This document shows, in pieces, positions 198-23,760 of a DNA stretch of 48,214 nucleotides (within the stretch, counting starts at the first letter, position 1; every line of letters starts with the position of its first letter). The stretch lies in the NCBI GenBank assembly GCA_900757485.1, contig CAAEOA010000050.1, positions 1 through 48,214 on the forward strand, given 5' to 3'. This DNA is from Oscillospiraceae bacterium. Lineage in GTDB: Bacteria > Bacillota > Clostridia > Oscillospirales > Ruminococcaceae. Under the pieces are notes generated by a model that was not told where the DNA came from, ran no database searches, and saw only the letters and a list, made by a program, of their open reading frames with translations. Position numbers and translations under genes: made by a program.

Positions 198-2072
198 TTA
201 TGCGGTAGCCTTACGCCTCTTCGGAGGAATAATAGGCTCTAAAACCGCGCTGATAAGTGCTTCTCGGTCGAGCTCATCGGAAGTCGCCTTACTGATGATG
301 GTGTACATAGCCGAATTGTAGGCGTCACCTGTGATCTCCGTGCTGACAATCCAGTCGATGAGGCTTCGCATACCGTAGGAACCGTCTGTAATACTGTTCT
401 TTCGGCAATACTCAGCCAGATCATTAACAACCTGGACCATCTGTGACACCTGGAATTCATCGGTAGCACCCGTAACTGACATTGCACGTTGTACCATCAC
501 CTCAGGGGACGGCATTTCCACGTCTCGTACCAGACTCATACGGTCAATAACCGACTGGTTCATACCACGGCATCCCTCATAGCTGACGTTGGTCGTAACG
601 ACTACAACAGCATCCGGATGACGCTCGATGATTTCGCCTGTCGGCAACGTGATAGAACCGGTCTGCTCAAGCAATGAGTTAAGACCAACCAAAACACCGG
701 GCTGGACGATGGTTGAAGGTTCCTGAATCTCGATAACGTAACCGTTCTTCAGGGCCTTGATAAAGTCCGTTTCCACATAGGTGTAGGTCTGTCCGCTGCT
801 CTTTGCATTCTCATCGCGCTTAGACAGCGCTCTGACCTTCTCAGTGACCTTATCGAGCACAATAGCCATACAGTCCTGGGAAGATGCATCCGGCTTCTCA
901 ACGCCCGTGAGAGCCTTATAAACGCCTGCGGGGTCATAGTCCATATCATCAAGATCCGGAAGATTCATCAATTTAGAAACATTGGCGTAATTTACACCGC
1001 CCATGCTCTTAAGGACAGCATTCTCTGCGTCCAACTGTGCATCTCCTGTGGAGCTCGAATCAGAGTCCGGGAAGATCATACCGACAAAATCGAAGATCTC
1101 CGTACCTGCCGAACAGGTATATTTCATATACGGCAAGTTCAGTCCTGCAGCAATCGCCTTGGCGCCCATCGTTTTACCGGTACCTGCAGGTCCGCGCAAC
1201 AGAAAGTTACGCATCTGCATCGGTTTACCGGTAGTGAGCTGAGCGTGCTTACAGATATCCACGACCTCATCCGGAATGATGTACCAGGCCGGAAGTACAG
1301 GGATCAATGACTGCTCAACAGCGTTGAAGCTTCTTTTACCAAATTCATACTTGCCTATAAAGTCCTCGTGTTCCACCAAGGTTGTAGCCTTACCTACGGT
1401 AACGCGGGCGGTCTTTGCCATAATGACAAACTCACCGGCAACGACAGACTTTGGTTCAAAACGTCCTGAGTCAATATGTGCCGGAGACACACGCATGAGG
1501 TTTCCTGATTTATCCACATTCACTTTGACGTGGGCAGAACAGGTTTCATCCTTGATGCGTCGGTACGCGTTATCACAAAGGATCGCCATTGTATCCCTCG
1601 CACCGTTAAAATCCGTAAAACCTTTGGTGTAGTGGTCACGGTAGGCATTGAAGTTCTCTTCAAACTCATCATCCGTCATCAGCACCGGGAACAGCGCCAT
1701 CATTACTGCAGCACCGTCTCTGCCTGAAGAGTTCAAAACGTAGTTTTCAAAGGATTCGGTACCTTTATCGTAGACACTGGCCATAATGCTGCCTTTATCA
1801 CTGTCATAGACAACCAAGTGATAAGCATCCGGGCTTACAGAGGACTTGTATTCTGCAACAGTTTTTTGGTCAATGACACCAACTGCGCCTTCTCCAGTAG
1901 CCTGCATACAGTTGATAACCGCATGAATGGCCTTGATCATAGTGGCGCAGAGAGTTGAGGTTGTTTTATCACCATATTTTGAGGATACGCCGACCTTTTT
2001 GTTGGACAGCGTATCAAATGGTGCCGGCAAATCTCTGCCGAAATTGAAAATGTTATTCATGTATGTAGCCAT
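198..2072 (-). CDS. AAA+ ATPase (AAA_5 / MoxR-CobS-like) with a large N-terminal domain
   Basis: Walker A LLRGPAGTGKT (aa 291-301), Walker B-like GYVIEIQEP (about aa 444-452), VVVVTTN sensor-like segment. An acidic insertion of about 95 aa separates Walker A from Walker B. Confidence 0.8.
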   Translation of the reverse strand: MATYMNNIFNFGRDLPAPFDTLSNKKVGVSSKYGDKTTSTLCATMIKAIHAVINCMQATGEGAVGVIDQKTVAEYKSSVSPDAYHLVVYDSDKGSIMASVYDKGTESFENYVLNSSGRDGAAVMMALFPVLMTDDEFEENFNAYRDHYTKGFTDFNGARDTMAILCDNAYRRIKDETCSAHVKVNVDKSGNLMRVSPAHIDSGRFEPKSVVAGEFVIMAKTARVTVGKATTLVEHEDFIGKYEFGKRSFNAVEQSLIPVLPAWYIIPDEVVDICKHAQLTTGKPMQMRNFLLRGPAGTGKTMGAKAIAAGLNLPYMKYTCSAGTEIFDFVGMIFPDSDSSSTGDAQLDAENAVLKSMGGVNYANVSKLMNLPDLDDMDYDPAGVYKALTGVEKPDASSQDCMAIVLDKVTEKVRALSKRDENAKSSGQTYTYVETDFIKALKNGYVIEIQEPSTIVQPGVLVGLNSLLEQTGSITLPTGEIIERHPDAVVVVTTNVSYEGCRGMNQSVIDRMSLVRDVEMPSPEVMVQRAMSVTGATDEFQVSQMVQVVNDLAEYCRKNSITDGSYGMRSLIDWIVSTEITGDAYNSAMYTIISKATSDELDREALISAVLEPIIPPKRRKATA

Positions 2073-2097
2073 GACTTAGTAATTCCTTTCTGCAGTT

Positions 2098-2826
2098 TCA
2101 CTGCGTGAGATTGATTTTGATACCCTGAGGTATGCACTTGACATCATCGAGCCCATTCTTTTCAAGCTCTTTGCAAATGGCAGGCCAGCTCTCCTTGACG
2201 GGAAGCTCATCCGCTGTCAGAATGATTTCGGTCATTCCTTCACCGATTGCCTCGTTGCAGCGCTTGTTAAGCTCCATAATGTGTGCGTCAGCCCATTCAA
2301 AGGCGACCAGGTCGAAGTTTTCTTCCTGAGGTTCATTAGTGTCTGTGTCCTCGTCATCAGACTCAATTGGTTTTGCTGGGGCACAGTTGTATTCGATCGT
2401 CACAACCTGTAAATTTTGAATTACTACGTGTGCGCGGCGATAACCACCTGCACGGTTGAGCAAAATGAACACATCTTCGCCCAGTTCGATGAGCTGTCGG
2501 GCATTCGGTGCTTCCCAGACCCATCTGGCTTCAGGATAAGATGTTGTGACAAGCTCTGTGATCCGTCTGAGTATGACAGAGTAAGCTATATCTCTCACAT
2601 CTTTTTCCGTGGGCTCCTTAGGTTCCGGTAATGCCGGCAATGGTAACGGTTCTACTACCTCAACTCGCTTAGGAGAGAGAAACAGCAACCGTAACGCCGT
2701 AATGAAAATGCCGATGATGAGGAGGAAAATGATTGGCCAGAGCCGACATAGAAACATCAGCACGGTCAGCATCACAAGGATCACTAAGACTTCATAGGCG
2801 ATATGCCGTTTCCAATCCTTCTTCAT
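2098..2826 (-). CDS. Membrane-anchored hypothetical protein (N-terminal 2 TM)
   Basis: 242-aa ORF with a hydrophobic N-terminus (VLVILVMLTVLMFLCRLWPIIFLLIIGIFITAL). Overlaps the upstream ORF by 4 nt. Confidence 0.6.
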   Translation of the reverse strand: MKKDWKRHIAYEVLVILVMLTVLMFLCRLWPIIFLLIIGIFITALRLLFLSPKRVEVVEPLPLPALPEPKEPTEKDVRDIAYSVILRRITELVTTSYPEARWVWEAPNARQLIELGEDVFILLNRAGGYRRAHVVIQNLQVVTIEYNCAPAKPIESDDEDTDTNEPQEENFDLVAFEWADAHIMELNKRCNEAIGEGMTEIILTADELPVKESWPAICKELEKNGLDDVKCIPQGIKINLTQ

Positions 2827-3209
2827 ACTTTCTGATTTCCTTTCCGTAATCGAGATGGCGGAATATATATGTGCAGCTGTGATGCGCCACTTTCATCCGC
2901 CTGGTTATTCAAGAGAATTGCCGCAGGAAGTGCCGGGCAGTACAACTCGCCACGCGTATTATCGTGACTTACAAGTACCTGCCCGAGCACGGTCTTACCT
3001 CGGAATCCGCTTGACAGTTGCAAGACTTCACGGAACTTGTCAGCGTCATTGTGAACAACGATGCTGCACTGCTTGCGAGGAGAGACGCATAAAAGAATGC
3101 TTCTCATCTCCTCAGCGGTGAGGGTCCGGTCGGTCTTATCGTTCAGTATTGCTCTGAACTTTGAGTTTTTCTCTGCCTCAGTTAAGAGACAAAACGCTGC
3201 ATTCCGCAT
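2823..3209 (-). CDS. Hypothetical protein
   Basis: 128-aa ORF with AAAGGAGG SD upstream of the ATG at 3209. No family recognised. Confidence 0.55.
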   Translation of the reverse strand: MRNAAFCLLTEAEKNSKFRAILNDKTDRTLTAEEMRSILLCVSPRKQCSIVVHNDADKFREVLQLSSGFRGKTVLGQVLVSHDNTRGELYCPALPAAILLNNQADESGASQLHIYIPPSRLRKGNQKV

Positions 3210-3230
3210 AAGACACCTCCTTTAGAACGC

Positions 3231-3273
3231 AAAAAGGCGCACATGGTTCTAATTACAGAAACTCATGTGCGCC
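3231..3273 (-). terminator. Intrinsic terminator after ssb-like gene
   Basis: Minus strand GGCGCACATG-N18-CATGTGCGCC (10-bp stem) followed by TTTTTG. Lies only about 20 nt upstream of the SD of the next ORF. Confidence 0.7.
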
Positions 3274-3304
3274 CTTAATACGCTCTATTCATTTGTTCGC
3301 TCCT

Positions 3305-3799
3305 TTAATTCTGATCATCAAAGAACGAATTGCCGCCAAAAGGTTCATAGCCGGTGAAACCACCAGTGCCATCGCCTGTATTGGCTGCAGGAGTTTGAGC
3401 AGGTGCCTGATTGCTTGTGCCGTTCGTCGCATTGCCGTTATTATTGTTGGATTTGCCACCACCGGAAGCGTACTCAATCTCATCGAGAATGAGAACAGGA
3501 CAACTCTTCTTTTCCTTGGTTGTCTGATCTTCCCAGGTGTCTTCGTCCAGCCGAGCCTCGATGTTGATAAACGAGCCTTCCTTCAGCTGCATCTTTTCGA
3601 TGCGATCGACGATCGGGCCAAAGCCCTTTACGGAATAATTGAGCCATCTTGTGTTGTTCTCAGCCTTCGGATCATAGACCTTCTTGCCGATGCGGAATCT
3701 TACCGATGCGGCAGAGTCATTACCTCTGGTGATACTGATGGCGGGTTTGTTGTCATATCCTCTGGAAATGACGACTTGGGTTGCGAATACCTTTAACAT
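3305..3799 (-). CDS. ssb: Single-stranded DNA-binding protein-like (OB fold, Gly/Asn-rich linker, acidic C-terminal tip)
   Basis: The N-terminal ~110 aa have the SSB OB-fold layout. A low-complexity G/N/A/P linker follows, and the C-terminus is ...GGNSFFDDQN, resembling the acidic SSB tail. Confidence 0.7.
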   Translation of the reverse strand: MLKVFATQVVISRGYDNKPAISITRGNDSAASVRFRIGKKVYDPKAENNTRWLNYSVKGFGPIVDRIEKMQLKEGSFINIEARLDEDTWEDQTTKEKKSCPVLILDEIEYASGGGKSNNNNGNATNGTSNQAPAQTPAANTGDGTGGFTGYEPFGGNSFFDDQN

Positions 3800-3878
3800 A
3801 GGTTACTCCTTTCTGCAGGGATTGCCTGCAACAAAAATTTTATATTTCAACCCGCATTTTGCGGGACGAAACCGAGAA

Positions 3879-3971
3879 ATAAAAAAAGTGCCAATCAGCA
3901 CTAATGTGCTAACTGACACTGTGAAAACTCTGATAACTGTGTTTGGTACTTGACCAAACTCTGATACTAAC
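3879..3971 (-). ncRNA. Conserved structured leader RNA, copy A (two UAUCAGAG-type boxes, hairpin 1, terminator hairpin)
   Basis: Shares a 24-nt block (3917-3940) and a 13-nt block (3960-3972) with copy B. Hairpin GTTTGGT-caagt-ACCAAAC (3941-3959). Terminator stem 3888-3917 plus a U7 run. Confidence 0.6.
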
Positions 3972-3977
3972 ACAATT

Positions 3978-4006
3978 ATTATAGCAGATTATTTCCCAAT
4001 AGTCAA
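3978..4006 (-). promoter_or_regulatory. SigA-type promoter A (TTGACT-17-TATAAT)
   Basis: Reverse complement of 4001-4006 is TTGACT. A 17-nt spacer follows. Reverse complement of 3978-3983 is TATAAT. Confidence 0.7.
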
Positions 4007-4026
4007 TCTTTTCGCAAAAATTGGCG

Positions 4027-4194
4027 TTACTCAGGTTTTACAATGGTCTTTTCAATCTCAGTCCTTGCAAAATCCAGAGCAACCATCGCCTTTATCTCAT
4101 CAAAGCGAAAAGTGCCATCTTCGGTTTCGTTATTTCTGATCAGCGCTTCAATCTCATTAAGCAGTTCATAGATTTTTTCTTTGTTAGAACCCAC
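4027..4194 (-). CDS. Small hypothetical protein (55 aa) missing from the ORF track
   Basis: GTG at 4192-4194 directly after the double stop of the upstream gene. Helical-looking sequence (V)GSNKEKIYELLNEIEALIRNNETEDGTFRFDEIKAMVALDFARTEIEKTIVKPE. Stop at 4027-4029, just before promoter A. Confidence 0.4.
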   Translation of the reverse strand: MGSNKEKIYELLNEIEALIRNNETEDGTFRFDEIKAMVALDFARTEIEKTIVKPE

Positions 4195-4197
4195 TTA

Positions 4198-4653
4198 TTA
4201 CACCCCATTTCTTACTTCCATTGCATAATAGTTAAACACTACGTATCCGTCATCCTGCGGGTATACCGGTGCCTTTACGGAAAGGTATACGATAACAGTA
4301 TCTCCGATTTTGAGTTTCTTAATCTTATGCCTCACGGAGATCTTCAGCGAGTTTTCCTCTAACTTCAGGGTGATGCTTTTGACGCGCTTTCTGATACCGG
4401 TAACTTCAATGTTCTCGCAAACACCTGCAACACTCACATAGTTGCCGTTGATACTATTATATAGCAGGAAAATGCCGTTTACAATGAGCAAGACCATAAA
4501 AAAGAGACTCGGCAACCACAAATACACATTGCGGTAAAAGAGCATAATCACTATGAAGAGGAGAAAGAAGCCCACACCACCGGCAAACCTTGAAATAATT
4601 TGCCATTGCAACACTTCAGGCAAGTTTTTGAACTTTTTTTTCATCAGTCTCAC
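4198..4653 (-). CDS. Membrane protein (2 TM plus C-terminal soluble domain)
   Basis: 151-aa ORF with two hydrophobic helices in the N-terminal half. No family recognised. Confidence 0.6.
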   Translation of the reverse strand: MRLMKKKFKNLPEVLQWQIISRFAGGVGFFLLFIVIMLFYRNVYLWLPSLFFMVLLIVNGIFLLYNSINGNYVSVAGVCENIEVTGIRKRVKSITLKLEENSLKISVRHKIKKLKIGDTVIVYLSVKAPVYPQDDGYVVFNYYAMEVRNGV

Positions 4654-4654
4654 C

Positions 4655-5218
4655 TCACAATATTACGATTTTCTTATTATTCAGCAGTACCATAATGGCT
4701 GCTGTAACTTTGTCTCTGCAGGTAGCGTGTTCCATCTGACATTCCAGGATGTTATCAAAGATATTTTCCTGAGTATAGATGGTTTCTACAAGTTTTTGAC
4801 GGTTGTCGGTATAGAGCAGATCCTTTTCGGGCTTAATCTGGCGCTCGTGCAGGTAGACAAGCTCTGCCATACTCAGTCTAATACCGGCATTGGTCAGCCA
4901 ATTAAGGATAGAAGACTCGAAACATCCTACCGTTAGACTGACATGAGAGTTTGCCGCAGCACAGAGCACACATCTGGTAAGAATTCTGTAACGGGAGACA
5001 AGGGTGTCTTCCTGCTCGTATTCCACCAGACCCATTCTGTACAAATGCTCGATGGCACGGTCCTGAGATGTATTTCGGGTTTCACAGAACCCAAAACGAC
5101 CATCCAGCCAGAGCTGCGCTTCGATCTTCGTGAGCTGGAACACCTGTCCGCCGCGACCGACATATATGTTACGTTCGGTGGATCTCTCCTGAACAATACC
5201 TTTGGAAATGTAAATCAT
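4655..5218 (-). CDS. Hypothetical protein
   Basis: 187-aa ORF, tightly packed with the downstream gene (1-nt gap). No family recognised. Confidence 0.55.
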   Translation of the reverse strand: MIYISKGIVQERSTERNIYVGRGGQVFQLTKIEAQLWLDGRFGFCETRNTSQDRAIEHLYRMGLVEYEQEDTLVSRYRILTRCVLCAAANSHVSLTVGCFESSILNWLTNAGIRLSMAELVYLHERQIKPEKDLLYTDNRQKLVETIYTQENIFDNILECQMEHATCRDKVTAAIMVLLNNKKIVIL

Positions 5219-5276
5219 TATTCATCACCTCGTGTTCTTTTACTTACATTACACGATGGGAGACAGTAATTTACAA

Positions 5277-5636
5277 CTAAAGAACATACATCAGAGCAAC
5301 ACAGGCTGCTATTACAACAAAAAGCACACCGATAATGATGGCAATCTTCTTGATGAGCTCTTTATCGACGCCTTCACGCTCACGGCCTTCATCAATCGGG
5401 CGGATGTCATCATAATAACCGTCATATCCATCATCAACGGCAGTTTCGATCTCGCTGCTGTTCTCCGTCTTCTTGGTAGGTTTCTTTTTCTTCTTTTTAG
5501 AAGCTTTCTTGATTTCTGGCTTTTTCTTAAGATTTTCTTTCTGCGTCTTACCTGTAGGAAGCTGTTTTCCGCATTCAGCGCAAAAAGAAACGGCATCCTC
5601 AATCAGATCGGCGCCGCAATAGGGACAGTATTTCAT
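5277..5636 (-). CDS. Zinc-ribbon protein with Lys-rich linker and C-terminal TM anchor
   Basis: MKYCPYCGADL...CAECGK is a CxxC...CxxC motif. KKKKKK stretch, C-terminal hydrophobic helix. Start moved to the ATG at 5636 (SD AAGGAG 8 nt upstream). Confidence 0.65.
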   Translation of the reverse strand: MKYCPYCGADLIEDAVSFCAECGKQLPTGKTQKENLKKKPEIKKASKKKKKKPTKKTENSSEIETAVDDGYDGYYDDIRPIDEGREREGVDKELIKKIAIIIGVLFVVIAACVALMYVL

Positions 5637-5662
5637 TTTACACACTCCTTTTCGGGCATAAT

Positions 5663-5694
5663 AAAAAAGTGGATCCGGTTAAGGACCCACTTTT
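5663..5694 (-). terminator. Terminator-like hairpin between promoter and first ORF
   Basis: Minus strand AAAAGTGGGTCC-ttaacc-GGATCCACTTTTTTATT. Located between the -10 box (5705-5710) and the SD of the 5636 gene. Confidence 0.55.
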
Positions 5695-5704
5695 GGACGA
5701 TATT

Positions 5705-5733
5705 AGTATACCACATTCTCTTTTACTTGTCAT
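5705..5733 (-). promoter_or_regulatory. SigA-type promoter (ATGACA-17-TATACT with TGn extension)
   Basis: Reverse complement of 5728-5733 is ATGACA. A 17-nt spacer follows. Reverse complement of 5705-5710 is TATACT, preceded by TGG. Confidence 0.55.
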
Positions 5734-5738
5734 CGGCA

Positions 5739-5771
5739 TTTTATAGGCGTTTTATAGGCGTTTTGTAGGCA
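5739..5771. repeat. Three tandem 11-bp repeats (TTTTATAGGCG x2, TTTTGTAGGCA)
   Basis: Units read directly at 5739-5749, 5750-5760 and 5761-5771. They sit immediately upstream of the -35 box. Confidence 0.85.
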
Positions 5772-5918
5772 CATCACAAATCGCATAATATGGCGCAAAC
5801 TTCCTTTCGTGTGGACAAATGTTGTCATAGTCCAAATATTCTGGGGTTGTCATTGGTTATACCTCCTTTTTACAGCACAAATACATACCAACACTTTCCA
5901 CAAGTCCAGAGAAATATT

Positions 5919-5947
5919 AAAGACGGCGAAATAAATCCGCCGTCTTT
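5919..5947 (-). terminator. Hairpin terminator after TetR gene (left boundary of cargo island)
   Basis: AAAGACGGCG-N9-CGCCGTCTTT, a perfect 10-bp stem flanked by A/T runs. Confidence 0.65.
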
Positions 5948-5951
5948 CAAC

Positions 5952-6407
5952 TTAATTACTATAGATTTTATCGTATTCCCGTTTTACTATCGTTCCCATT
6001 TGTTCAGCCGGCTCAATACAGCCGTCCTCGAACCACATTTTTGCAACGGAATATATGCCGTTTCTGAAAAAGATAGTCTTATAGTCTGTAGACACTTGAC
6101 TGACACCGAGTTTGAAATAAATCCTGAAAAGGTCAGGATGCTCTTTTATGTAGTCAAATATCGAAGAAAAATCATTTTCAGTATGTGGTTGCTCGGACAC
6201 CTGCTTTTCAACTTGGGCCGCATAAGCATTTGCCAATGCCGCCACATCTTCATAGTGAGCATAGAAGGTACTACGTTCTATACTAGCAAGTTCACATATA
6301 TCCGTAACGGTAATTTCACGCAGTTCCTTATCCTGAAGCAAGGAAATAAAAGCTGCATTTATGCTTTCCTCTATATCCCGGTATCGCTTATTGTTAGGGG
6401 TATTCAT
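5952..6407 (-). CDS. TetR/AcrR-family transcriptional regulator
   Basis: N-terminal HTH signature INAAFISLLQDKELREITVTDICELASIERSTFYAHYEDV. Confidence 0.8.
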   Translation of the reverse strand: MNTPNNKRYRDIEESINAAFISLLQDKELREITVTDICELASIERSTFYAHYEDVAALANAYAAQVEKQVSEQPHTENDFSSIFDYIKEHPDLFRIYFKLGVSQVSTDYKTIFFRNGIYSVAKMWFEDGCIEPAEQMGTIVKREYDKIYSN

Positions 6408-6417
6408 ACAGCCATCC

Positions 6418-6825
6418 TCATTTCATTAGTTCGTCTGTCAGACGAAGAATCTCCGGTGCTATCTTTTCACGCTCTTTCTTTATAATGCGATTGTAAAGAG
6501 GATAAGCAAGGCTGACAAGAACAATACCGACAACACCGATTATAATTCCAAACAGCATAGACATTCCTCTGTATGAACCGAGGATTTCGCCTAAATCGGT
6601 CATTGCAAGACTCATTCCAAACCCTAAAATCAAAGCGCCGATTACACCGAACACAAGAGAAGCTGCCTGAGCTTTTTGCGTAACGCCTGCATCCAAGCGA
6701 CGAAGCTGTGCCATTTTGTCCTCTTTTTCTTCGGGTGCGGAATATTTCTTTCGGATTGCTTTGATTTCTTCCTGCTGTTTTGCAGAATAAGTATAGTTAA
6801 AGGTTTCTTTCTCTTTATTCTCCAT
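6418..6825 (-). CDS. Small 2-TM hairpin membrane protein, paralog A
   Basis: FNYTYSAKQQEEIKAIRKKY N-terminal helix, central Gly-rich TM hairpin, C-terminal helix. Paralogous to 15726-16115 and 15271-15636. Start set at the ATG 9 nt after GGAGG (alternative start 6834). Confidence 0.7.
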   Translation of the reverse strand: MENKEKETFNYTYSAKQQEEIKAIRKKYSAPEEKEDKMAQLRRLDAGVTQKAQAASLVFGVIGALILGFGMSLAMTDLGEILGSYRGMSMLFGIIIGVVGIVLVSLAYPLYNRIIKKEREKIAPEILRLTDELMK

Positions 6826-7714
6826 CTTTTTCATCCTCCGCTGTTCTTAACAGCTTTAATTTCTTATTACTCTGCACAATCATATAAATTGCCATTCCAA
6901 TGATAAATACCGAAATCACACCGCCCGTAGCTCCAAGCATAATGCGTCTGGTTGTCAGATCCATTGTACCGTCACCGAAGGTTGTCAGCATTGTAGACTC
7001 CAAGGTAAGCATGGATACCAAGGCCGCTGTAAGGCTAATAGCCTTGGAAGCAGAATATACGGGACTGTTATATTTACGGTATTTTACCACATTCATAATC
7101 GCCATTGTTAGCGAGGCGAAGGTGTATGCAGCCATCGTAATCGTAGTAATTTCGTGATGATTGAAAGTCCTGTTCCAATACACCATAAAGAAAATAATGA
7201 GTGCAAGAGCTAAGTTCATTAAAAGGAACACAATCCCGCAGGCACGGTACTTAATAAGTTCTTCTTTCATAAGCTCGCCGGGTTTATGACGGCTTGTATG
7301 AAGAACCAAGAAGAAACGCATTATGGCAAGAGCAATATAATATCCTGCAAGGGAATAAAACCAAAATGTATGATGCCAAAATCCCATGCCGAGTTGCAAA
7401 AGCGCATATGCCGTATTCCAAATCAGCGTGCCGAAAAGTGATACGTTCACTCGAAGTCTATCATCGTCCTGCCACCGTCTTGAGTATTTGTTTTCATCTT
7501 TGAAAGTCTTAAAAAACCGAATTAAATACGGCACTTTCAGAGTCCAAATCATCAATGTGTAAAAGGCAAGCACATAGGACACGATGGCGATGATGGAATC
7601 TGACCCCATAAATACTAAGGAATATACCAAAAACACTGTTGCGATAGGAAGCAGAATTATCATTATAGCAATGGGAGGAAACAAAACTGCTTTACCGATT
7701 TTCTTCCAATCCAT
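6815..7714 (-). CDS. Polytopic membrane protein, unknown family
   Basis: 299-aa ORF with about 7-8 hydrophobic segments. SD GGAGG upstream. Starts 1 nt after the HK stop. Confidence 0.7.
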   Translation of the reverse strand: MDWKKIGKAVLFPPIAIMIILLPIATVFLVYSLVFMGSDSIIAIVSYVLAFYTLMIWTLKVPYLIRFFKTFKDENKYSRRWQDDDRLRVNVSLFGTLIWNTAYALLQLGMGFWHHTFWFYSLAGYYIALAIMRFFLVLHTSRHKPGELMKEELIKYRACGIVFLLMNLALALIIFFMVYWNRTFNHHEITTITMAAYTFASLTMAIMNVVKYRKYNSPVYSASKAISLTAALVSMLTLESTMLTTFGDGTMDLTTRRIMLGATGGVISVFIIGMAIYMIVQSNKKLKLLRTAEDEKDGE

Positions 7715-7715
7715 A

Positions 7716-8783
7716 TTATGTCCTCCGAATTTTCACGGTAAATGTAGTACCAACGCCAACAATGCTTTCTACGCCGATTTCACCCTGCAAAATATCAATT
7801 ACTCTTTTAACAAGAGCAAGTCCCAGACCGTTGCCTTGAACGGAATGGGAGGTGTCGCCCTGATAAAACTTCTCGAAAATGTGTGCACCTACTTCTGCGG
7901 TCATTCCACAGCCTGTATCCTTCACTTTGACGATGGCGTGATGTTCGGTGGCTGTAAGCTGTAGCGATACCGAGCCGCCCTCCTCGGTGAATTTGAAAGC
8001 ATTGGAAAAAAGATTATTCCACACAAGAGAAAGAAGTTCAGCATCCGCCTCCACCTTAATATCTTCCGCAATATCGGTGTCTATCTCAATATTCTTCTTT
8101 TCCCACACATTTTCAAATTGCAATAAGCATTCACAAAGCTGTTCTCCTAAATCAAACGTAGTGGTTTCGGGAAAAATCTGCTGATTCTCAAGACGATTTA
8201 GCTTCAGAATATTGGTCATCATTTCAGAAAGACGGCGTGAAGCATCGGTTACGCCCTTAGCATACTCTATGCGCTTTTCTTCGTTCAAATCAGGGGCCTG
8301 CAGAAGTGTTCCGTAATTGTTGATTACAGCAAGGGGCGTTTTCATTTCGTGGGATACGTTAGCAATAAAATCGGTACGCAGGGTTTCCACACTGGATAGT
8401 TCTTCTGCCATTTGGTTTATTGCCATAACAATCTGATTAAAGCCCTCCATGCCGGAGCTTTGCATGGGTTTAATGCGAACGGAAAAATCACCGGACATGA
8501 TCTTTTCGGTTGCTTCTGTAATGATTTTAGTTGGACGCTCAACCATAATTTTGCGTCGAATATAATCTGCAAATTTGAAAAGAAATGTAATTAAAATTAC
8601 GTTCCAAAAGGTTACCTTTGCGGCAGTGCCAACATTGTCGGGAGTGATTGTAAGCTCCATAGTATCTGCCAATATGCTAACAAACAGCATCATGCAGCAG
8701 GACACGATAAATCCCACTGTTAAGAAGAACAACAAAAAGCTACTAACCGATCCCAATACATCTTTCAGCGTCGGTTTCTTCAT
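7716..8783 (-). CDS. Sensor histidine kinase, intramembrane-sensing type (2 TM, ~20-aa loop, HAMP, HisKA, HATPase_c)
   Basis: H-box FIANVSHEMKTPLA, N-box NLFSNAFKF, G-boxes DTGCGM and GNGLGLALV. Very short extracytoplasmic loop between TM1 and TM2. Confidence 0.9.
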   Translation of the reverse strand: MKKPTLKDVLGSVSSFLLFFLTVGFIVSCCMMLFVSILADTMELTITPDNVGTAAKVTFWNVILITFLFKFADYIRRKIMVERPTKIITEATEKIMSGDFSVRIKPMQSSGMEGFNQIVMAINQMAEELSSVETLRTDFIANVSHEMKTPLAVINNYGTLLQAPDLNEEKRIEYAKGVTDASRRLSEMMTNILKLNRLENQQIFPETTTFDLGEQLCECLLQFENVWEKKNIEIDTDIAEDIKVEADAELLSLVWNNLFSNAFKFTEEGGSVSLQLTATEHHAIVKVKDTGCGMTAEVGAHIFEKFYQGDTSHSVQGNGLGLALVKRVIDILQGEIGVESIVGVGTTFTVKIRRT

Positions 8784-9451
8784 TTGATCACCGCCTTGTA
8801 GCCAAGTCCGTGAACTGTTTTGATCTCAAAATCCTCACAGTCAGACAGCTTTGAACGAAGCTTTGTCATATACACATCAACTGCGCGGGGAGCCGTTTCG
8901 GTATCAGCATCCCAAAACTCATCCATAAGCTGCGTTCTTGTAAAGGTCTTTTTAGGATAACTAAGCAGCTTATAAAGGATGCTGAACTCACGATTGGTAA
9001 GGGAAATTTCTTCATCCCGTAAATATGCTGTATGTTCATCCGCATCCATAACAAATCCACCTATTTCAAGTTTGCGTGAGGATGCGATCTTTGCACGGCG
9101 AAGAAGTGCACCGATACGTAAAAACAACTCGTCAAGGTCGATGGGCTTTACCATATAGTCGTCTACACCGATGCGGAAGCCTCTCTGCTTGGAGGCAATA
9201 TCATCACGGGCAGTCATAAAGAGGATCGGAATGTCCTCGTTCAGCTCTCGCACATTTCTTGCAAATTCAAAACCATCCACGCCGGGCATCATAATGTCGG
9301 ATACGATAAGGTCGAACATATTCTCATAAAGCGCATCGTAAGCATCGTTTGCATTCAAACATCCGGTAGCTTCATATCCGCTGTGGTTCAAAAACGAGCA
9401 AACAGTCTTGTTCAGCTCCTTATCATCCTCTACAACCAATATCTTAAACAT
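8780..9451 (-). CDS. OmpR/PhoB-family response regulator
   Basis: MFKILVVEDD...DLIVSDIMMPGVDG receiver domain. C-terminal winged helix ...VHGLGYK. Start moved to the ATG at 9451 (GGAGG 8 nt upstream). Confidence 0.9.
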   Translation of the reverse strand: MFKILVVEDDKELNKTVCSFLNHSGYEATGCLNANDAYDALYENMFDLIVSDIMMPGVDGFEFARNVRELNEDIPILFMTARDDIASKQRGFRIGVDDYMVKPIDLDELFLRIGALLRRAKIASSRKLEIGGFVMDADEHTAYLRDEEISLTNREFSILYKLLSYPKKTFTRTQLMDEFWDADTETAPRAVDVYMTKLRSKLSDCEDFEIKTVHGLGYKAVIK

Positions 9452-9487
9452 CGTGTTACCTCCGCTTATTACTATCATTCATTATAC

Positions 9488-9521
9488 AGTATAACACCCA
9501 AATGTTAAAGTTTTGTTTATG
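9488..9521 (-). promoter_or_regulatory. Promoter of the RR-HK operon with two phased 8-bp boxes (probable autoregulation)
   Basis: -10 TATACT (rc of 9488-9493). Boxes TGTTAAAG (9503-9510) and TGTTTATG (9514-9521) are 11 bp apart. The 9-nt gap to the -10 matches the three island promoters. Confidence 0.55.
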
Positions 9522-9614
9522 TTTTGGCCTCTTTGAAAAGATTTTCAAATTTATTTTATCACTATGTAACCCCTAACTGAACAACACATATTGCTAAAAG
9601 TGTTGATTTGAAAG

Positions 9615-9649
9615 TCAAGGCAACGCCGATATTTACAGCGTTGCCTTGA
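9615..9649 (-). terminator. Stem-loop after the second ABC permease
   Basis: TCAAGGCAACGC-N11-GCGTTGCCTTGA, a perfect 12-bp stem. The U-tract is weak (CUUUC). Confidence 0.5.
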
Positions 9650-9652
9650 AAA

Positions 9653-10468
9653 TTATACCAAACTTGATTTTTTCAGCACAGCCTTACTTCCAAATCCCAA
9701 GCCGACAGCGAATATTGCACCGCCTGCGAGACAGAGAATGACGTTGATGAAGGTCGAGCCGAGAGGCGTGATCATAGAAACCATCATAAACAGGAGCATT
9801 CCTCCACCAAGAGAGCCACAGATCGAAAGCCAAGCCTTCTGCTTTGCCGCTACGCTGATAAGCGTAAAGATAGATACGAACACGAGCATAAGGAATATCT
9901 TTGCGAGCATACACATCACGATATTGCCTGCGTTAAGTCCGTGAAGGTCAAAGGATAGACCTGCCATAGCACCGCCGAGAATGGAGCCGATAAAATATGC
10001 GACCAGCATTAACCCTCCGCATATAAATCCCGAGACCGTCTTTGACACCACGTATTCGCCTCTTTTTGCACGAACGGTGAAGAGATTTTTTGCGTAACCG
10101 CTTCTAAAATCATCCGAAATAAAGAGACAAACGAACACGGCGACGAGCATAAACACCATATTGATGTTGCACATCATAAATATCTCGTTTCCACCCATTG
10201 CTTCACCGCCGGGAAGCGTTCCTATATTCTGCCACGTGTTTTCGGGGCCTTGCATAACCGTTTCCACACCTGTCTGCGGATCGACCGAAACAGAGCCGTC
10301 CATCATTGCCATCATCACGGTCATAAGTATCGGCATCACAAGAGCGCAGGCGATCAATATGTAAAACAGCTTGGATTTGAACATTCTGCGGAAGTCTACC
10401 TTCAGCATACTTCCTATGCGCTTACCGAAGCTGATCTTTTCAAATTTCATTGCATTTTCCATTTTCAT
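9653..10468 (-). CDS. ABC-2 type transporter permease (pair 2)
   Basis: 271 aa with 6 hydrophobic segments. ATGA overlap with the upstream ATPase. Paralog of 11381-12217. Confidence 0.75.
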   Translation of the reverse strand: MKMENAMKFEKISFGKRIGSMLKVDFRRMFKSKLFYILIACALVMPILMTVMMAMMDGSVSVDPQTGVETVMQGPENTWQNIGTLPGGEAMGGNEIFMMCNINMVFMLVAVFVCLFISDDFRSGYAKNLFTVRAKRGEYVVSKTVSGFICGGLMLVAYFIGSILGGAMAGLSFDLHGLNAGNIVMCMLAKIFLMLVFVSIFTLISVAAKQKAWLSICGSLGGGMLLFMMVSMITPLGSTFINVILCLAGGAIFAVGLGFGSKAVLKKSSLV

Positions 10469-11364
10469 CTGCCTCCTTTCATAAGGTCGATATAATATTC
10501 TTCAAGACCGATCTTGTCGGTTTTGATCTCCGTCACAATGATACCGTTATCGTACAGATATTTAACAATATCCTCGGGCGTGGTCAGATCATACACACGG
10601 ATATAGCCTGCTTCATCTTCTTCAACACGGGAGTACTTGCAGCCGAGGAGCATTTTCGTTCTGTTCATTTCACCGCTTTGCAATGCAACGTAGGTACGGC
10701 AGCTCGCGTCAAGCTCGTCGGCGGTCATTTCCACGAGCATTTTGCCGTGACGGATAATGCCGTAATGGGTCGCTACCTTTTGAAGCTCGCCGAGGAGGTG
10801 TGAGGACACGATAATGCTGCGCGTTCCGTCCTTTATGATGTCAAGGAACACCTCGCGCATAATTCTCATACCGTCGGCATCAAGACCGTTCAAAGGCTCG
10901 TCAAGAACGAGAAGCGTAGGATTGCCGAGCAGAGCCATCGCAATACCGACTCTCTGCTTCATACCGAGGGAGCAGTTCTTGTATTTGTTACCTGCCGCAC
11001 CCTCCATTCTTACCATTTTGAGAACTCTGATAACTTCTTGCTCCGCGTTAGGAATAGACAGATTTGCCGCTTGAAGCATCATATTGTCAAACACGGTAAG
11101 TCCCGGGAAGCAACCAGGAGCTTCGATCAAAACACCCATTTGGGCTCTTATGCTCTCGTCGGTATAGTCCTTGCCATAGAGCTTGATCGATCCGCCGCTT
11201 GTGGGAATCAGTCCGCAGATCATTTTTTCGGTGGTGGATTTTCCCGAGCCGTTCTCACCGATAAAGCCGTAGATCGCGCCCATGGGAACGGTCATATCAA
11301 GACCGCACACAGCCTGCTTGGGGCCGAAGTTTTTAGATAAATTCTTTATTTCAACTGCATTCAT
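10465..11364 (-). CDS. ABC transporter ATP-binding protein (pair 2)
   Basis: Walker A GENGSGKST, signature CSLGMKQR, Walker B LLVLDEP. Start moved to MNAVEIKNL (GGGAGG SD). Confidence 0.9.
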   Translation of the reverse strand: MNAVEIKNLSKNFGPKQAVCGLDMTVPMGAIYGFIGENGSGKSTTEKMICGLIPTSGGSIKLYGKDYTDESIRAQMGVLIEAPGCFPGLTVFDNMMLQAANLSIPNAEQEVIRVLKMVRMEGAAGNKYKNCSLGMKQRVGIAMALLGNPTLLVLDEPLNGLDADGMRIMREVFLDIIKDGTRSIIVSSHLLGELQKVATHYGIIRHGKMLVEMTADELDASCRTYVALQSGEMNRTKMLLGCKYSRVEEDEAGYIRVYDLTTPEDIVKYLYDNGIIVTEIKTDKIGLEEYYIDLMKGGR

Positions 11365-11380
11365 TGTTTCGACCTCCCAA

Positions 11381-12217: not shown

Positions 12218-12218
12218 T

Positions 12219-13121: not shown

Positions 13122-13134
13122 AAATTTTACTCCT

Positions 13135-14697: not shown

Positions 14698-14758
14698 TAA
14701 GCCACCTCATAAAATGCCGAAAAGCGAGACGGCAAAATGCCGTTTCGCTCGTTCGGTC

Positions 14759-15247: not shown

Positions 15248-15270
15248 TGTTGATATCTCCTTTATAAAAT

Positions 15271-15636: not shown

Positions 15637-15669
15637 TTTGATTACCCCTTTTCAATTTGTTGTAGGCAC

Positions 15670-15714
15670 ATTATACCGTGCCGATGTTTTTGAAAGTTTT
15701 GAAAATTGTTTGAG
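15670..15714 (-). promoter_or_regulatory. Promoter P1 with three phased 8-bp boxes (candidate response-regulator-dependent)
   Basis: -10 TATAAT (rc of 15670-15675). Boxes at 15685, 15696 and 15707 (TGTTTTTG, GTTTTGAA, TGTTTGAG on the plus strand), 11-bp period. No good -35. Confidence 0.6.
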
Positions 15715-15725
15715 TTTTATTAAAA

Positions 15726-16115: not shown

Positions 16116-16141
16116 TTTGATTTCCTCCGAAAGAACAGCGA

Positions 16142-16447: not shown

Positions 16448-16481
16448 CGTAATAATCTCCTTTTCTTGATTTTGTGTCCTC

Positions 16482-22479: not shown

Positions 22480-22740
22480 TTAGAACGGCACGTCATCGTC
22501 CTGCATATCATGCATTCCTTCGACCGGCGCCTCTTCGTAATACCAAGAATAATCTCTGATAAACTCTCTTACCTCAAATAGGCAGAAAGCAATGAAAAGG
22601 CATAGGAAAAAGATGCTGCTGACACACTCAAAGATGAGTCCGAGCTGTAAAGCAAGGTATACGTTGGATATCCCAACAGGGATAATGATGATGGCCATGA
22701 TAAGCATGGCGATGGTTAAGATGAATGATAATTTTCTCAT
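22480..22740 (-). CDS. Small membrane protein (2-3 TM)
   Basis: Hydrophobic 86-aa ORF. Its SD region CGAAAAGGAGTGTGT is identical over 15 nt to that of the 5636 gene. Confidence 0.55.
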   Translation of the reverse strand: MRKLSFILTIAMLIMAIIIIPVGISNVYLALQLGLIFECVSSIFFLCLFIAFCLFEVREFIRDYSWYYEEAPVEGMHDMQDDDVPF

Positions 22741-22840
22741 AGTGAGACACACTCCTTTTCGTTTTGTTTATATAGTAACGGCAAGCCCTGAGGCTCCCCG
22801 AGAAAAAAGGTTGGGGGAACCTTTCGGCTCCGATCTATAT

Positions 22841-22886
22841 AAAAAAAGCACCCATCAAAATACACTGACGTGCATTCAATGAGTGC
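22841..22886 (-). terminator. Second intrinsic terminator inside leader B
   Basis: Minus strand GCACTCATTGA-N17-TTGATGGGTGC followed by TTTTTTTA. Confidence 0.6.
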
Positions 22887-22985
22887 CTTTGTTGCCATTT
22901 ATGGTGGCTCAGATTCAATTGTAAAGAGAAGGGATAGCCCCTTCAGTTCCGGCCTCTTGTGCTTCTTTCTGGAAGAAAGCATAAG

Positions 22986-23073
22986 AAAACAAAAAGTGCC
23001 CAAAAGATAATCTCTCGGGCACTGTGAAAACTCTGATAACTGTTACTGCCAATAGGCAATATCTGATACTAAC
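22986..23073 (-). ncRNA. Conserved structured leader RNA, copy B
   Basis: 24-nt (23020-23043) and 13-nt (23062-23074) blocks identical to copy A. Hairpin 1 is TTGCC-tatt-GGCAG. The terminator is GTGCCCGAGA-gattatc-TTTTGGGCAC plus UUUUUGUUUU. Confidence 0.6.
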
Positions 23074-23079
23074 ATAAAT

Positions 23080-23108
23080 ATTATATCAGAAGAATCCGCA
23101 AAAAGCAA
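23080..23108 (-). promoter_or_regulatory. SigA-type promoter B (TTGCTT-17-TATAAT)
   Basis: Reverse complement of 23103-23108 is TTGCTT. A 17-nt spacer follows. Reverse complement of 23080-23085 is TATAAT. Confidence 0.6.
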
Positions 23109-23758: not shown

Positions 23759-23760
23759 AA

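Follow-up and report, generated by a model that had tools for sequence, protein, structure and literature searches.

The sequence upstream of an SSB-like gene in a contig from Oscillospiraceae bacterium (CAAEOA010000050.1, assembly GCA_900757485.1) raises the question of what a strong promoter does that fires almost directly into a terminator, and why this arrangement recurs elsewhere in the same stretch of DNA. The window analysed here is that whole stretch, 48,214 nt in length. An initial annotation, made from the letters alone, had described the unit on the minus strand as a promoter, two short single-stranded blocks (block 1 and block 2) flanking a hairpin, and a terminator (T1). It had left open whether the unit is an attenuator, a small-RNA gene, an antitermination site or a set of DNA operators.

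Anatomy of the two copies

The promoter described for copy A is real: TTGACT-17-TATAAT lies on the minus strand where it had been placed, and with 11 of 12 consensus positions and a TG extension it is the top promoter match within 2000-6500 in a consensus scan. The second copy, at 22986-23108, also proved genuine, and both copies consist of a promoter, block 1 at the predicted +1, a hairpin, block 2 and a terminator of 13-15 bp (Table 1). Read in the sequence, the stretches identical between the copies are 13 nt and 24 nt long, as had been claimed; with up to three mismatches allowed, a search of the window for the 24-nt block still gives these two occurrences and no others, against zero expected from 100 shuffles. 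The hairpins had been called completely different in sequence yet paired. The pairing holds in both copies, but "completely" is slightly overstated, as the 5′ arms of the family share a G-W-U-U-K-S flavour; AUUGC-type hairpins like hairpin 1 of copy B also occur elsewhere among type B units, in the families of L064 and L111. Similarly, the core TATCAGAG said to be shared by the two blocks forms a genuine direct repeat of 8 nt within this element, whereas the likeness of block 1 and block 2 across the family is only modest (local alignment score 5.3 versus 4.1 for shuffles).

Folding of both copies, which had been suggested as a check, showed the minus-strand RNA to be more stable than the plus strand (z = -6.2 versus -3.4 for copy A and -5.0 versus -3.0 for copy B), and several terminator pairs are indeed G-U pairs available to the minus-strand RNA only. 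Downstream of T1, the distal leader of copy A contains GGUUUC..CCCGC-N4-GCGGG..GAAAU, an A/U-rich stretch and the hairpin CUGCAGG..CCUGCAG, directly 3′ of which lies the ribosome-binding site GAAAGGAG. The longer distal leader of copy B carries two terminator-like hairpins (~22887-22841, with a long loop and U7, and ~22831-22803). A promoter-like site was found neither in 3800..3879 nor in 22753..22985 by consensus scan. A 10-nt perfect complement flanks unit A (3866-3875 versus 4121-4130); as this pairing comes out first or second in no more than 4 of the 11 families, we did not treat it as a conserved long-range helix.

Table 1 Features of the two copies of the unit and of the genes behind them
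Feature	Position	Strand	Remarks
Copy A, unit overall	4006-3880	-	type A
Copy A, -35 hexamer TTGACT	4001..4006	-	promoter scan; 17-nt spacer follows
Copy A, extended -10, TGC-TATAAT	3978..3986	-	promoter scan
Copy A, block 1 and predicted +1 (G3971)	3959..3971	-	GTTAGTATCAGAG (RNA/feature form GUUAGUAUCAGAG)
Copy A, hairpin 1	3941..3959	-	GUUUGGU-CAAGU-ACCAAAC (DNA arms GTTTGGT/ACCAAAC); folding
Copy A, block 2	3917..3940	-	ACAGTTATCAGAGTTTTCACAGTG (feature form ACAGUUAUCAGAGUUUUCACAGUG); last 4 nt = terminator stem bottom
Copy A, intrinsic terminator T1	3880..3920	-	stem-loop 3920-3887, 15 pairs, 4-nt loop, then U7
Copy A, distal leader	3800..3879	-	conserved among type A units
First gene behind copy A	3305..3799	-	divergent SSB-like protein, 164 aa; Pfam SSB E = 1.4e-4; TIGR00621 E = 1e-6
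Genes after the SSB-like gene	ATPase 198-2072	-	p128, p242, CobS-like AAA_5 ATPase
Copy B, unit overall	23108-22986	-	type B
Copy B, -35 hexamer TTGCTT	23103..23108	-	weak
Copy B, extended -10, TGA-TATAAT	23080..23088	-	
Copy B, block 1 and predicted +1 (G23073)	23062..23073	-	GUUAGUAUCAGA
Copy B, hairpin 1	23044..23061	-	UAUUGCC-UAUU-GGCAGUA (DNA TATTGCC/GGCAGTA); dG -8.9, z = -3.8
Copy B, block 2	23020..23043	-	identical to that of copy A
Copy B, terminator T1	22986..23023	-	stem-loop 23023-22995, 13 pairs, 3-nt loop, then U5-G-U4
Copy B, long distal leader	22753..22985	-	more hairpins; read from sequence
First gene behind copy B	22480..22752	-	p90, membrane-like
Further genes of the p90 operon			p118, N6 DNA methylase, p73, p166, p132, DUF4262, YodL, CxxCxxCC proteins

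Both helices are under RNA-level selection in related elements

A covariance model of the unit gave 94 matches in 1.03 Mb of related gut-Clostridia loci, all but one weak match on the operon strand and none of them an orphan copy without an operon behind it. The units occupy three syntenic positions per element, which we call types B, A and C, each heading a co-directional operon; in the related locus L049 they lie at 1450, 9820 and 19705, respectively, and the genome contig JAUNJO010000001.1 also carries all three types. Of 56 distinct regions in front of SSB-like genes, with protein identity as low as ~56%, 55 carry unit A, and the type A distal leader is kept as far as the ribosome-binding site down to 58% identity. 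The SSB-like homologs amount to 596 protein clusters, and the hosts of these elements include Oscillospiraceae, Acutalibacteraceae, Ruminococcus and Absicoccus. In most relatives unit B directly follows integrase-sortase. The GC content of the module ranges from 0.31 to 0.44, with no GC-rich stretch. A blastn search in distant mode with copy A against plasmid and phage records gave no match. We rejected a phage origin, since the "Bacteriophage sp." matches are unverified virome contigs; the genes tested on one such contig, 28 kb long, include those for a histidine kinase, transporters of the ABC and MatE types, a resolvase, a ligase and NADAR, and none for structural proteins.

Selection acts at the RNA level on both helices. 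With a covariance model built from a register-consistent seed (a model from a MAFFT seed mis-registered hairpin 1, with 73% paired), 97.9% of the cells in both helices are paired compared with 76.6% in shuffles, a percentage somewhat inflated because the alignment used for the pair counts was fitted to the model structure; none of 500 shuffles reached 97.9%, and controls in which the helices were slid had 37-43% of cells paired. The covariation score is 0.554 versus 0.178 in shuffles. For hairpin 1, 96.3% of cells are paired family-wide and five of its six pairs change on both sides, including C-G/G-C swaps (pair types CG:30/GC:22, GC:30/UA:18 and AU:24/UA:13/UG:10), and T1 is paired in 98.6% of cells with abundant covariation. 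Many pairs are U-G and valid only on the sense strand, and the model scores the antisense strand at no more than 37 bits compared with 39-112 bits for the sense strand. The compensatory changes that had been predicted for homologous copies in related elements are therefore present in both hairpins, and 54 distinct homologous copies, covariation in both helices and strand-specific wobble pairs bear out the proposal of a functional RNA rather than a plain duplication.

The unpaired parts are more conserved in sequence than most of the paired ones. Among 22 family representatives, mean column identity is 0.86 in block 1, 0.78 in block 2, 0.70 in the hairpin 1 stem and 0.64 in upper T1; the bottom 5 bp of T1 (GUGUC/GGCAC) are nearly invariant (0.98), so that conservation is continuous from block 2 into the foot of T1. 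The family consensus of block 1 is R-U-N-A-G-U-W-U-C-A, and none of the 54 distinct units departs from its A at +4 and T at +8. Unit-specific co-evolution of the two blocks was rejected, as their similarity within a unit (5.3) equals that across units (5.2). Neither a conserved alternative, antiterminator-like pairing in minimum-free-energy folds nor, on reading the aligned leaders, a leader peptide with a conserved start codon or reading frame across families was found.

Block 1 is coupled to the promoter. Of 51 distinct upstream regions, 50 have TGn and TATAAT or TATACT at a constant offset, with spacers of variable sequence; TTGACT at 17-nt spacing is present in 41 of 51 distinct units, and the aligned units keep 7 nt between the -10 and the start of block 1, except for L054/L055 and L105 with 8 nt. 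From this spacing and an invariant Y-R step we predict the +1 at G3971 and G23073. In L049 the promoters of units A and C are the two best matches in 20 kb, that of unit B being absent from the scan list because of its weaker -35, and the unit terminators are among the strongest. T1 stems have 13-18 pairs across the family. Sigma-70-type consensus scans of the window copies, L049 and relatives revealed no promoter between T1 and the first gene, and the same scans of the window and related loci detected no terminator other than T1 behind the upstream operon. L049 has a further leader terminator in the C leader (19827-19858, 14 pairs) and a terminator-like site in the B leader (1585-1601), which is homologous to that of copy B. 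Two other promoter types were considered. For sigma-54, the 3′ foot of T1 offers a sequence similar to a -24 box (TGGCAC), but TTAT or TTGT stands where the -12 GC would be needed, and the candidate was rejected. Frpo-type promoters, known from plasmid leading regions, depend on a long inverted repeat that restores the -35 and -10 boxes when the DNA is single-stranded; no inverted repeat was found over either promoter of the window.

Known antitermination systems and the search for a partner

The unit matches no known RNA family. Rfam 15, which includes the EAR/epsC motif, riboswitches and known leaders, gave no match at gathering score in the window or in 88 kb from five related loci; matches around copy A at E up to 10 were noise (at most 17 bits against thresholds of 35-90), and none was obtained around copy B at E up to 1. 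Full-text literature searches by block sequence and by topic (antitermination leaders of clostridial ICEs) were negative. Among ~70 element proteins scanned from the window and related loci, there was no NusG/LoaP, Q/AlpA, ANTAR or CAT-type domain and, in Pfam, no NusG_N or KOW domain; LoaP-dependent antitermination was rejected for want of a NusG-paralog domain in this set. The kinship with put, EAR, LoaP targets and conAn put forward in the initial annotation was thus not upheld, given the absence of both an Rfam match and a NusG-like gene and the several times larger, otherwise organised conAn2 and canT.

The nut site combines a linear boxA element with a boxB loop read by the arginine-rich N protein, and its specificity lies in the boxB hairpin. 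HK022 put consists of two stem-loops of ~70 nt, which need no phage protein for their action in cis on RNA polymerase, and it has no conserved linear blocks. Our unit resembles both in being a short RNA module (linear box and hairpin, or stem-loops) just past early promoters, present in more than one copy per element and followed by terminators (PMC11658703). By description it is set apart from both: nut and put are not tied to +1, whereas the module here starts there. A single hairpin precedes T1 instead of the two stem-loops of put, and, unlike in nut, the stem and loop of hairpin 1 are free in sequence while the flanks are conserved; an N-like protein was not found among the scanned proteins.

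Promoter-plus-terminator checkpoints relieved by antitermination are established in mobile elements, namely conAn of pLS20 (PMC8191782), canT of Tn916 (PMC11658703) and AlpA/Q (PMC9371919). The likeness to conAn and canT is that of antitermination in Gram-positive conjugative elements past terminators that insulate long operons (PMC8191782, PMC11658703). However, conAn2 is 260-600 bp long, follows the small conAn1 gene at the head of the conjugation operon and requires a GC-rich 16-bp stretch and the stem-loop SL1 (PMC8191782), whereas the module here measures ~55 nt from +1, precedes any gene, lacks a GC-rich element and occurs three times per element instead of once. Compared by size and description, canT is a cis RNA of 341-452 nt between orf8 and xis, upstream of terminator T1 of Tn916 (PMC11658703), and is present once per element, while only ~55 nt separate +1 and T1 here. 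Stems in the 13-18 bp range resist conAn antitermination in pLS20 (PMC10325885); the T1 stems fall into this class, so bypassing them would need a strong or specific mechanism.

The layout also resembles that of Q and AlpA (PR′-qut-tR′, giving 6S RNA, and PalpB-tB), which likewise have a constitutive promoter, a close intrinsic terminator and a short default RNA (PMC9371919), the last being predicted in our case. There, the downstream genes need a termination-resistance factor, as would those here, and a conserved initially transcribed element stands at a fixed distance from the promoter (PMC9371919). With regard to the -10-like pause of these systems, N-A-G-T-W-T retains the two key positions in 54 of 54 units, although it matches TATAAT at only 2-4 of 6 positions. 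Q and AlpA, however, read a DNA element between -35 and -10, and here the spacer is not common to the A, B and C units or to the families. Also unlike Q/AlpA, a covarying RNA hairpin and a second block lie between promoter and terminator, the element has three cassettes instead of one, and a Q/AlpA homolog was not found among the scanned element proteins. We conclude that the unit belongs to none of EAR, LoaP, conAn, canT and Q/AlpA and, judged by description, probably not to put.

Neighbouring genes were considered as partners. The sigma-r4/alpha-CTD protein (23761-24456), p211, AbrB and XRE beside copy B were rejected: they are absent from most relatives, and sigma-r4/alpha-CTD, XRE and AbrB are for this reason not the universal partner. 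The neighbouring Zn-ribbon operon gave no lead either: membrane helices are present in p151 and in the Zn-ribbon/K-rich protein, and its only soluble protein, p187 (confident AlphaFold model, pLDDT 92), had no fold match (best E = 0.25) and no sequence match in the PDB.

A candidate checkpoint and the alternatives

Among the options first considered, a cis-regulatory leader is favoured, as the unit precedes operons without a sigma-70-type promoter of their own. We give an even chance to the reading that each unit is a cis-acting leader at the head of one of the main operons of an integrative mobile element, at which transcription would be stopped by default and allowed to pass when a factor acts on the 5′ module. 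The near-consensus and probably constitutive sigma-A promoter would fire into the leader of ~55 nt (block 1, hairpin 1, block 2) and on into the unusually long-stemmed T1, which would at the same time serve as the sole visible terminator of the upstream operon. The predicted default product is a terminated RNA of 85-90 nt, with the downstream genes silent; their expression would need read-through of T1 and, in types B and C, of one or two more leader terminators. Read-through may be licensed by a trans-acting factor that recognises the single-stranded blocks flanking hairpin 1 and renders the polymerase termination-resistant; such a factor might be encoded by the element or by the host, or RNA polymerase itself could respond to the RNA, as for put. 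Among the points against the checkpoint, its anatomy is also typical of a small-RNA gene, and a candidate factor was not found among the ~70 proteins scanned, with transcription start, termination and read-through all being predicted. More tentatively, we consider it possible that the units are a new and very compact class of processive antitermination or licensing module, ~55 nt long, that has to begin at the +1 of its own promoter and is used by Gram-positive mobile elements. The RNA, alone on RNA polymerase or with a small factor, would then pass only locally initiated polymerases, and the long-stemmed T1 would halt transcription arriving from upstream, such that one element ends one operon and starts the next. 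Three such gates might set the order in which establishment and anti-defence operons are expressed.

Sibling sRNAs of the Qrr or LhrC type are encoded by multiple copies that have promoters and terminators of their own and in which single-stranded segments are conserved while the stems diverge. It appears rather unlikely to us that the units are such RNAs, three per element, acting in trans with operon read-through incidental or secondary, in which case the unpaired blocks would be seeds or protein decoys that regulate host or element mRNAs or counter host defence. The architecture would suit this well, with a strong promoter of its own and, in 85-90 nt, a conserved unpaired block at the 5′ end, then a hairpin and an A/U-rich linker before a strong, U-tailed terminator; a consensus promoter in front of a 13-18 bp terminator yields a short RNA by default, the copies share blocks and differ in stems as sibling families do, and the neighbours are of anti-defence or establishment type (methylases, YodL and SSB, with NADAR and DNA ligase in a remote relative). 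Yet, unlike in those families, every copy is co-oriented with and directly upstream of an operon lacking a sigma-70-type consensus promoter, as its 5′ leader, and no orphan was seen. Moreover, in type A the distal leader is conserved along with the unit as far as the ribosome-binding site, and element transcripts within the window contain no complement of the blocks of at least 9 nt, the single 9-nt match, at 41496, lying outside the element.

Less probable still is a role of the blocks as DNA, either as repressor or roadblock operators from +1 to +56 or, for block 1, as a -10-like sigma-dependent pause for an antiterminator of the Q/AlpA type. The fixed distance of block 1 from the -10 fits this idea, and the invariant A at +4 and T at +8 are spaced like A-11 and T-7 of a -10 hexamer (TAGTAT, AAGTWT). 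A constitutive promoter, a short terminated RNA and an operon are also the layout of lambda PR′-tR′ and PalpB-tB (PMC9371919), and only polymerases started at the unit promoter would still carry sigma, which would explain how T1 stops upstream transcription and yet lets local transcription pass. A pure DNA site does not, however, predict the covariation of hairpin 1 or the sense-only U-G pairs. The blocks are direct repeats and not palindromic, and the spacer, the binding place of Q and AlpA, differs within an element (in F1, ATTGGGAAATAATC in A and TTTGCGGATTCTTC in B; in F2 all three differ). Genes resembling Q/AlpA and a conserved repressor gene were likewise not found; most relatives lack the window's XRE, AbrB and sigma-r4 genes. 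We regard as similarly improbable an unregulated attenuator or insulator, in which T1 ends the upstream operon and trims a strong promoter to low constitutive output while the leader blocks help to stabilise the RNA or to make termination efficient. No terminator other than T1 was seen behind any upstream operon, and neither an alternative fold nor a regulator was found. In addition, the Zn-ribbon operon, which lacks the module, also opens with a promoter and, immediately behind it, a terminator-like hairpin, so promoter-then-terminator may be the house style of this element. Against a passive device stand ~35 unpaired nucleotides conserved at three loci per element between elements whose SSB-like proteins are 56-65% identical, far beyond passive need, and the position of the promoter before rather than after the terminator, an arrangement that would make for futile transcription if neither the short RNA nor a switch were important.

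The unit is most likely a checkpoint that decides whether the genes of the element are transcribed, a reading in which we place about half of our confidence. If true, it would be an undescribed regulatory RNA in a mobile-element family common in human and animal gut Clostridia, and the few antitermination mechanisms known from Gram-positive conjugative or integrative elements (conAn, canT) would be joined by one that is small and tractable. The motif is suited to submission as a new RNA family and, being short, with clear covariation and natural variants that include three paralogous copies per element, makes reporter and pull-down work straightforward. For the biology of these elements, the checkpoint would show how ~20 kb of DNA-metabolism, methylase and anti-restriction-type genes stay silent behind consensus promoters.

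Two copies in the window and the family they belong to

The unit upstream of the gene for an SSB-like protein (copy A) and its second occurrence (copy B) show an identical order of parts in the minus strand of the window sequence: a promoter, block 1, hairpin 1, block 2 and an intrinsic terminator, T1 (see table). We rechecked the parts, coordinates, folds and the count of the block 2 24-mer, and the initial annotation had described both units correctly in all details. In both copies, 7 nt with a pyrimidine-purine step at the end separate the -10 element from block 1, and the copy A promoter (11 of 12 positions, plus the TG extension) is the top promoter match within the surrounding 4.5 kb. 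With up to three mismatches tolerated, the 24-mer has two sites in the window, where none is expected. The minus-strand RNA folds into exactly hairpin 1 and the terminator (z = -6.2 for A and -5.0 for B), and the plus-strand RNA of both copies folds more weakly. The block 2 core recurs once over 13 nt in sense orientation (AGTTATCAGAGTT; chance expectation ~0.02), within an ABC ATPase ORF; promoter, hairpin and terminator are all absent around this copy, which is probably a coincidence.

Positions of the described features in the window
Feature	Coordinates	Strand	Remarks
Copy A -35	4006-4001	minus	TTGACT
Copy A extended -10	3986-3978	minus	TGC-TATAAT
Copy A block 1	3971-3959	minus	GTTAGTATCAGAG
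Copy A hairpin 1	3959-3941	minus	
Copy A block 2	3940-3917	minus	24 nt
Copy A terminator	3920-3887	minus	15 pairs, then U7
Copy B -35	23108-23103	minus	TTGCTT
Copy B extended -10	23088-23080	minus	TGA-TATAAT
Copy B block 1	23073-23062	minus	
Copy B hairpin 1	23061-23044	minus	
Copy B block 2	23043-23020	minus	24 nt
Copy B terminator	23023-22995	minus	13 pairs, then U5
Complement arm after T1 of copy A	3866-3875		UCGGUUUCGU
Complement arm upstream of copy A	4121-4130		ACGAAACCGA
Small acidic ORF	4027-4194	minus	55-58 aa, ...KIYELLNEIEALIRNNETEDGTFRFDEIKAMVALDFARTEIEKTIVKPE
p187	4655-5218	minus	
Zn-ribbon gene	5277-5645		
Control region of Zn-ribbon gene	5646-5800	minus	
Cargo	~6400-16700		
ABC ATPase ORF	10465-11394		
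Block 2 core copy	11023-11035	minus	
p211	23129-23764	minus	
Sigma-70 region 4 + RNA polymerase alpha-CTD-like domain protein	23761-24456	minus	
AbrB/MazE-like protein	24478-24735	minus	
XRE	24913-25248	minus	
Boundary locus	27630-29932	plus	

The SSB-like protein has hundreds of homologs in gut metagenomes, and the unit precedes its gene in 55 of 56 distinct upstream regions, at protein identities down to ~56%. When one genome per GTDB species was scanned for the pattern of the unit, 12 loci came up, in MAGs of Oscillospiraceae, Acutalibacteraceae, Ruminococcus, unclassified Eubacteriales and Clostridia, and an Absicoccus; on one contig the unit was present three times, each time in a different context. 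In 1.03 Mb of related loci, a covariance model of 30 representatives matched 94 times, always on the operon strand except for one weak antisense match that is due to the terminator palindrome. These matches sort into three syntenic positions. Type B follows the integrase-sortase genes and heads an operon for small membrane proteins, an N6 methylase, YodL, DUF4262 and others; type A follows the Zn-ribbon operon and heads the genes for the SSB-like protein, p128 and p242 (proteins named by their length in aa), a CobS-like AAA ATPase, a CobT-like VWA protein and a DNA methylase; type C lies ~9-10 kb beyond type A and heads an operon for a 400-aa protein, a YqaJ exonuclease, DUF7768 and a RecD2-like helicase. 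The window contains types B and A, and type C of its element would lie beyond position 1. The unit is thus a conserved family and not a local duplication.

The mobile element and its neighborhood

One end of the element encodes a tyrosine integrase and a sortase; DNA-metabolism and anti-restriction-type genes are also present. An insertion of cargo between the YodL/CxxCxxCC genes and the Zn-ribbon operon comprises two ABC transporter ATPase/permease pairs, a two-component system (response regulator and putative sensor) and small DUF-type proteins; the matching gap in the related locus L049 spans only ~2.3 kb. The genes from XRE to p211, which include an unusual fusion of sigma-70 region 4 and alpha-CTD, form another insertion, between the sortase gene and unit B; in most relatives this block is missing and unit B directly follows integrase-sortase. 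A small number of relatives carry the label 'Bacteriophage sp.' or are listed in IMG/VR, and neither phage structural nor conjugation genes were recognizable in the sequences examined.

Upstream of the Zn-ribbon gene, a different control region is kept in at least nine families. It has three or four copies of an 11-bp tandem repeat, GCCTAYAAAAY (in other families TGGCAsArAAA), immediately adjoining a weak -35 (GCCGATGACA); TGn-TATACT follows after a 17-nt spacer, and directly after the predicted start comes a hairpin of 12-13 bp (AAAAGTGGGTCC..GGATCCACTTTT) and its U-run. The repeats look like iteron-type sites for an activator or repressor, preceding a terminator-like 5' hairpin. The conserved small ORF upstream of unit A, present in nearly all relatives and encoding an acidic, helical product, has a GTG start, overlaps the end of p151 and stops 20 nt before the -35. 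It contains one arm of a perfect 10-nt complement that brackets all of unit A; in only 4 of 11 families does a similar pairing come out first or second in rank. The protein p187, conserved in all relatives, has a confident AlphaFold model (pLDDT 92, pTM 0.87), with no significant PDB fold match and no Pfam, PHROG or NCBIfam hit. Adjoining the integrase end, the opposite strand encodes a small HTH_17-like gene, a 487-aa protein (Schlafen/AlbA_2, HATPase_c_4 and winged-helix) and an XRE-family gene, which could be a defense or abortive-infection locus at the element boundary.

Covarying helices and conserved blocks

Among 22 representatives across families and types, mean column identity was 0.86 in block 1, 0.78 in block 2, 0.70 in the hairpin 1 stem and 0.64 in the upper terminator, with 0.98 in the bottom five terminator pairs (GUGUC/GGCAC). 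The consensus runs from the -10 through NNNNNY, R(+1) U N A G U W U C A and 0-3 nt to a hairpin of 6-8 bp, and from there through C M N A G U (U) W W U C M G R G U U W Y M A H A G U G to the terminator and U5-7. The promoter hexamers, TG extension, 17-nt spacing and 7-nt gap to block 1 are nearly invariant, unlike the spacer sequence, which varies freely. Within the window's own family, all three units have identical blocks, with hairpin 1 also common to A and C, and other families show moderate differences among the three, which points to patchy gene conversion over a common constraint. The proposed core shared by both blocks, TATCAGAG, is a strong direct repeat in some families, but family-wide the resemblance of the blocks is only modestly above shuffles and not unit-specific. 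A diverged unit was seen in L114 (MT835792.1; sites 1-215 and 14990-15210 examined), a remote relative filed as 'Bacteriophage sp.', where it precedes a canonical SSB gene with TTTAAGTTT twice around a longer structured insert, nowhere else in its 28 kb, and a conserved T1 base. This contig, which otherwise looks bacterial (histidine kinase, ABC and MatE transporters, resolvase), has a second consensus promoter with block 2-like sequence upstream of NAD-dependent DNA ligase and NADAR genes.

A covariance model rebuilt on a register-consistent seed placed standard pairs in 97.9% of cells over 54 distinct sequences, an alignment that is fitted to the model and favors pairing, compared with 76.6% in shuffles (0 of 500 reached 97.9%) and 37-43% with slid partners; the covariation score was 0.554 versus 0.178. 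In the same sequences, hairpin 1 was paired in 96.3% with both-side changes in five of six pairs (e.g., C-G 30 / G-C 22; G-C 30 / U-A 18; A-U 24 / U-A 13 / U-G 10), and the terminator in 98.6% with both-side changes in 9 of 14. When sequences were folded singly and independently, nearly all units formed hairpin 1 in the same position, from some ten different stem sequences. Changes from U-A to U-G, which would be A-C mismatches on the opposite strand, are frequent, in line with bit scores of 39-112 for sense and at most 37 for antisense matches. The RNA structure of the unit is under selection. The view that the unit is a functional RNA rather than a plain duplication is strongly supported by the covariation of both helices and the homologous family.

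Proposed conditional termination at the head of each operon

In all three operons, the stretch from T1 to the first gene showed no promoter of the sigma-A type in consensus scans, and because the operons seem dependent on the unit promoter, they would be expressed by read-through only. Since no terminator was found after the operon that precedes the unit, transcription arriving from there must end at T1 as well. The T1 stem has 13-18 pairs; Bacillus terminators average 9 +/- 2 pairs, and 14-15-pair stems resist conAn antitermination in pLS20 (PMC10325885). Type C leaders have a second terminator of 14 pairs, type B leaders one or more extra terminator-like hairpins, and the type A leader is also conserved 3' of T1, as far as the ribosome-binding site.

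The best-supported reading, to which we give about an even chance, is that the unit acts as a conditional termination checkpoint at the head of each operon. The near-consensus promoter and long T1 predict an 85-90-nt RNA as default product. The conserved unpaired blocks on either side of the free-sequence hairpin look like a recognition site, and conservation extends into the 5' foot of T1, as in leaders whose bound factor competes with terminator formation; a conserved alternative fold of the leader was not seen in the minimum-free-energy folds. The extra terminators in B and C leaders would argue for a processive modification. The strict coupling of block 1 to +1, which sites of the nut or put type do not usually show, suggests that the module may require a free 5' end or that block 1 may also serve in the DNA as a sigma-dependent pause signal, a candidate role because the invariant A+4 and T+8 match the two key positions of a -10 hexamer. 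With either, T1 could stop upstream polymerases yet pass locally started ones.

Sibling small RNAs that act in trans would also match the anatomy of the unit well. Against them, each copy is joined to an operon lacking its own sigma-70-type consensus promoter, and the element transcripts of the window contain no complementary site of at least 9 nt, which makes this reading unlikely. Still less probable is a DNA-level site, an operator or a Q/AlpA-like loading site, as hairpin 1 covariation is left unexplained, -35/-10 spacers are not shared and a gene for Q/AlpA or a common repressor was not found, even though the fixed promoter distance and -10-like positions fit. We consider a passive attenuator and insulator just as improbable; it is simple and has a parallel in the Zn-ribbon operon start, likewise a promoter followed by a terminator-like hairpin, but leaves unaccounted for why ~35 unpaired nucleotides are kept at three loci over deep divergence.

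As an explanation, a cis-regulatory or antitermination role ranks first; it is plausible and unproven. The checkpoint would work most like the promoter-terminator cassettes relieved by antiterminators, namely lambda Q, AlpA, N/nut, put, conAn and canT. The specific kinship with put, EAR, LoaP or conAn suggested initially found no support: Rfam gave no match to the unit, the defining LoaP gene was not found among the element proteins scanned, and conAn2, as well as canT, differs in size and layout. The unit also lacks the DNA element between -35 and -10 of Q/AlpA and the inverted repeat of Frpo. On these comparisons, which covered Rfam, conAn, canT, LoaP, Q/AlpA and Frpo and in each of which the unit departs from the defining features, we class it as a probable checkpoint of the leader/terminator type in a mobile element, with an RNA motif not described before.
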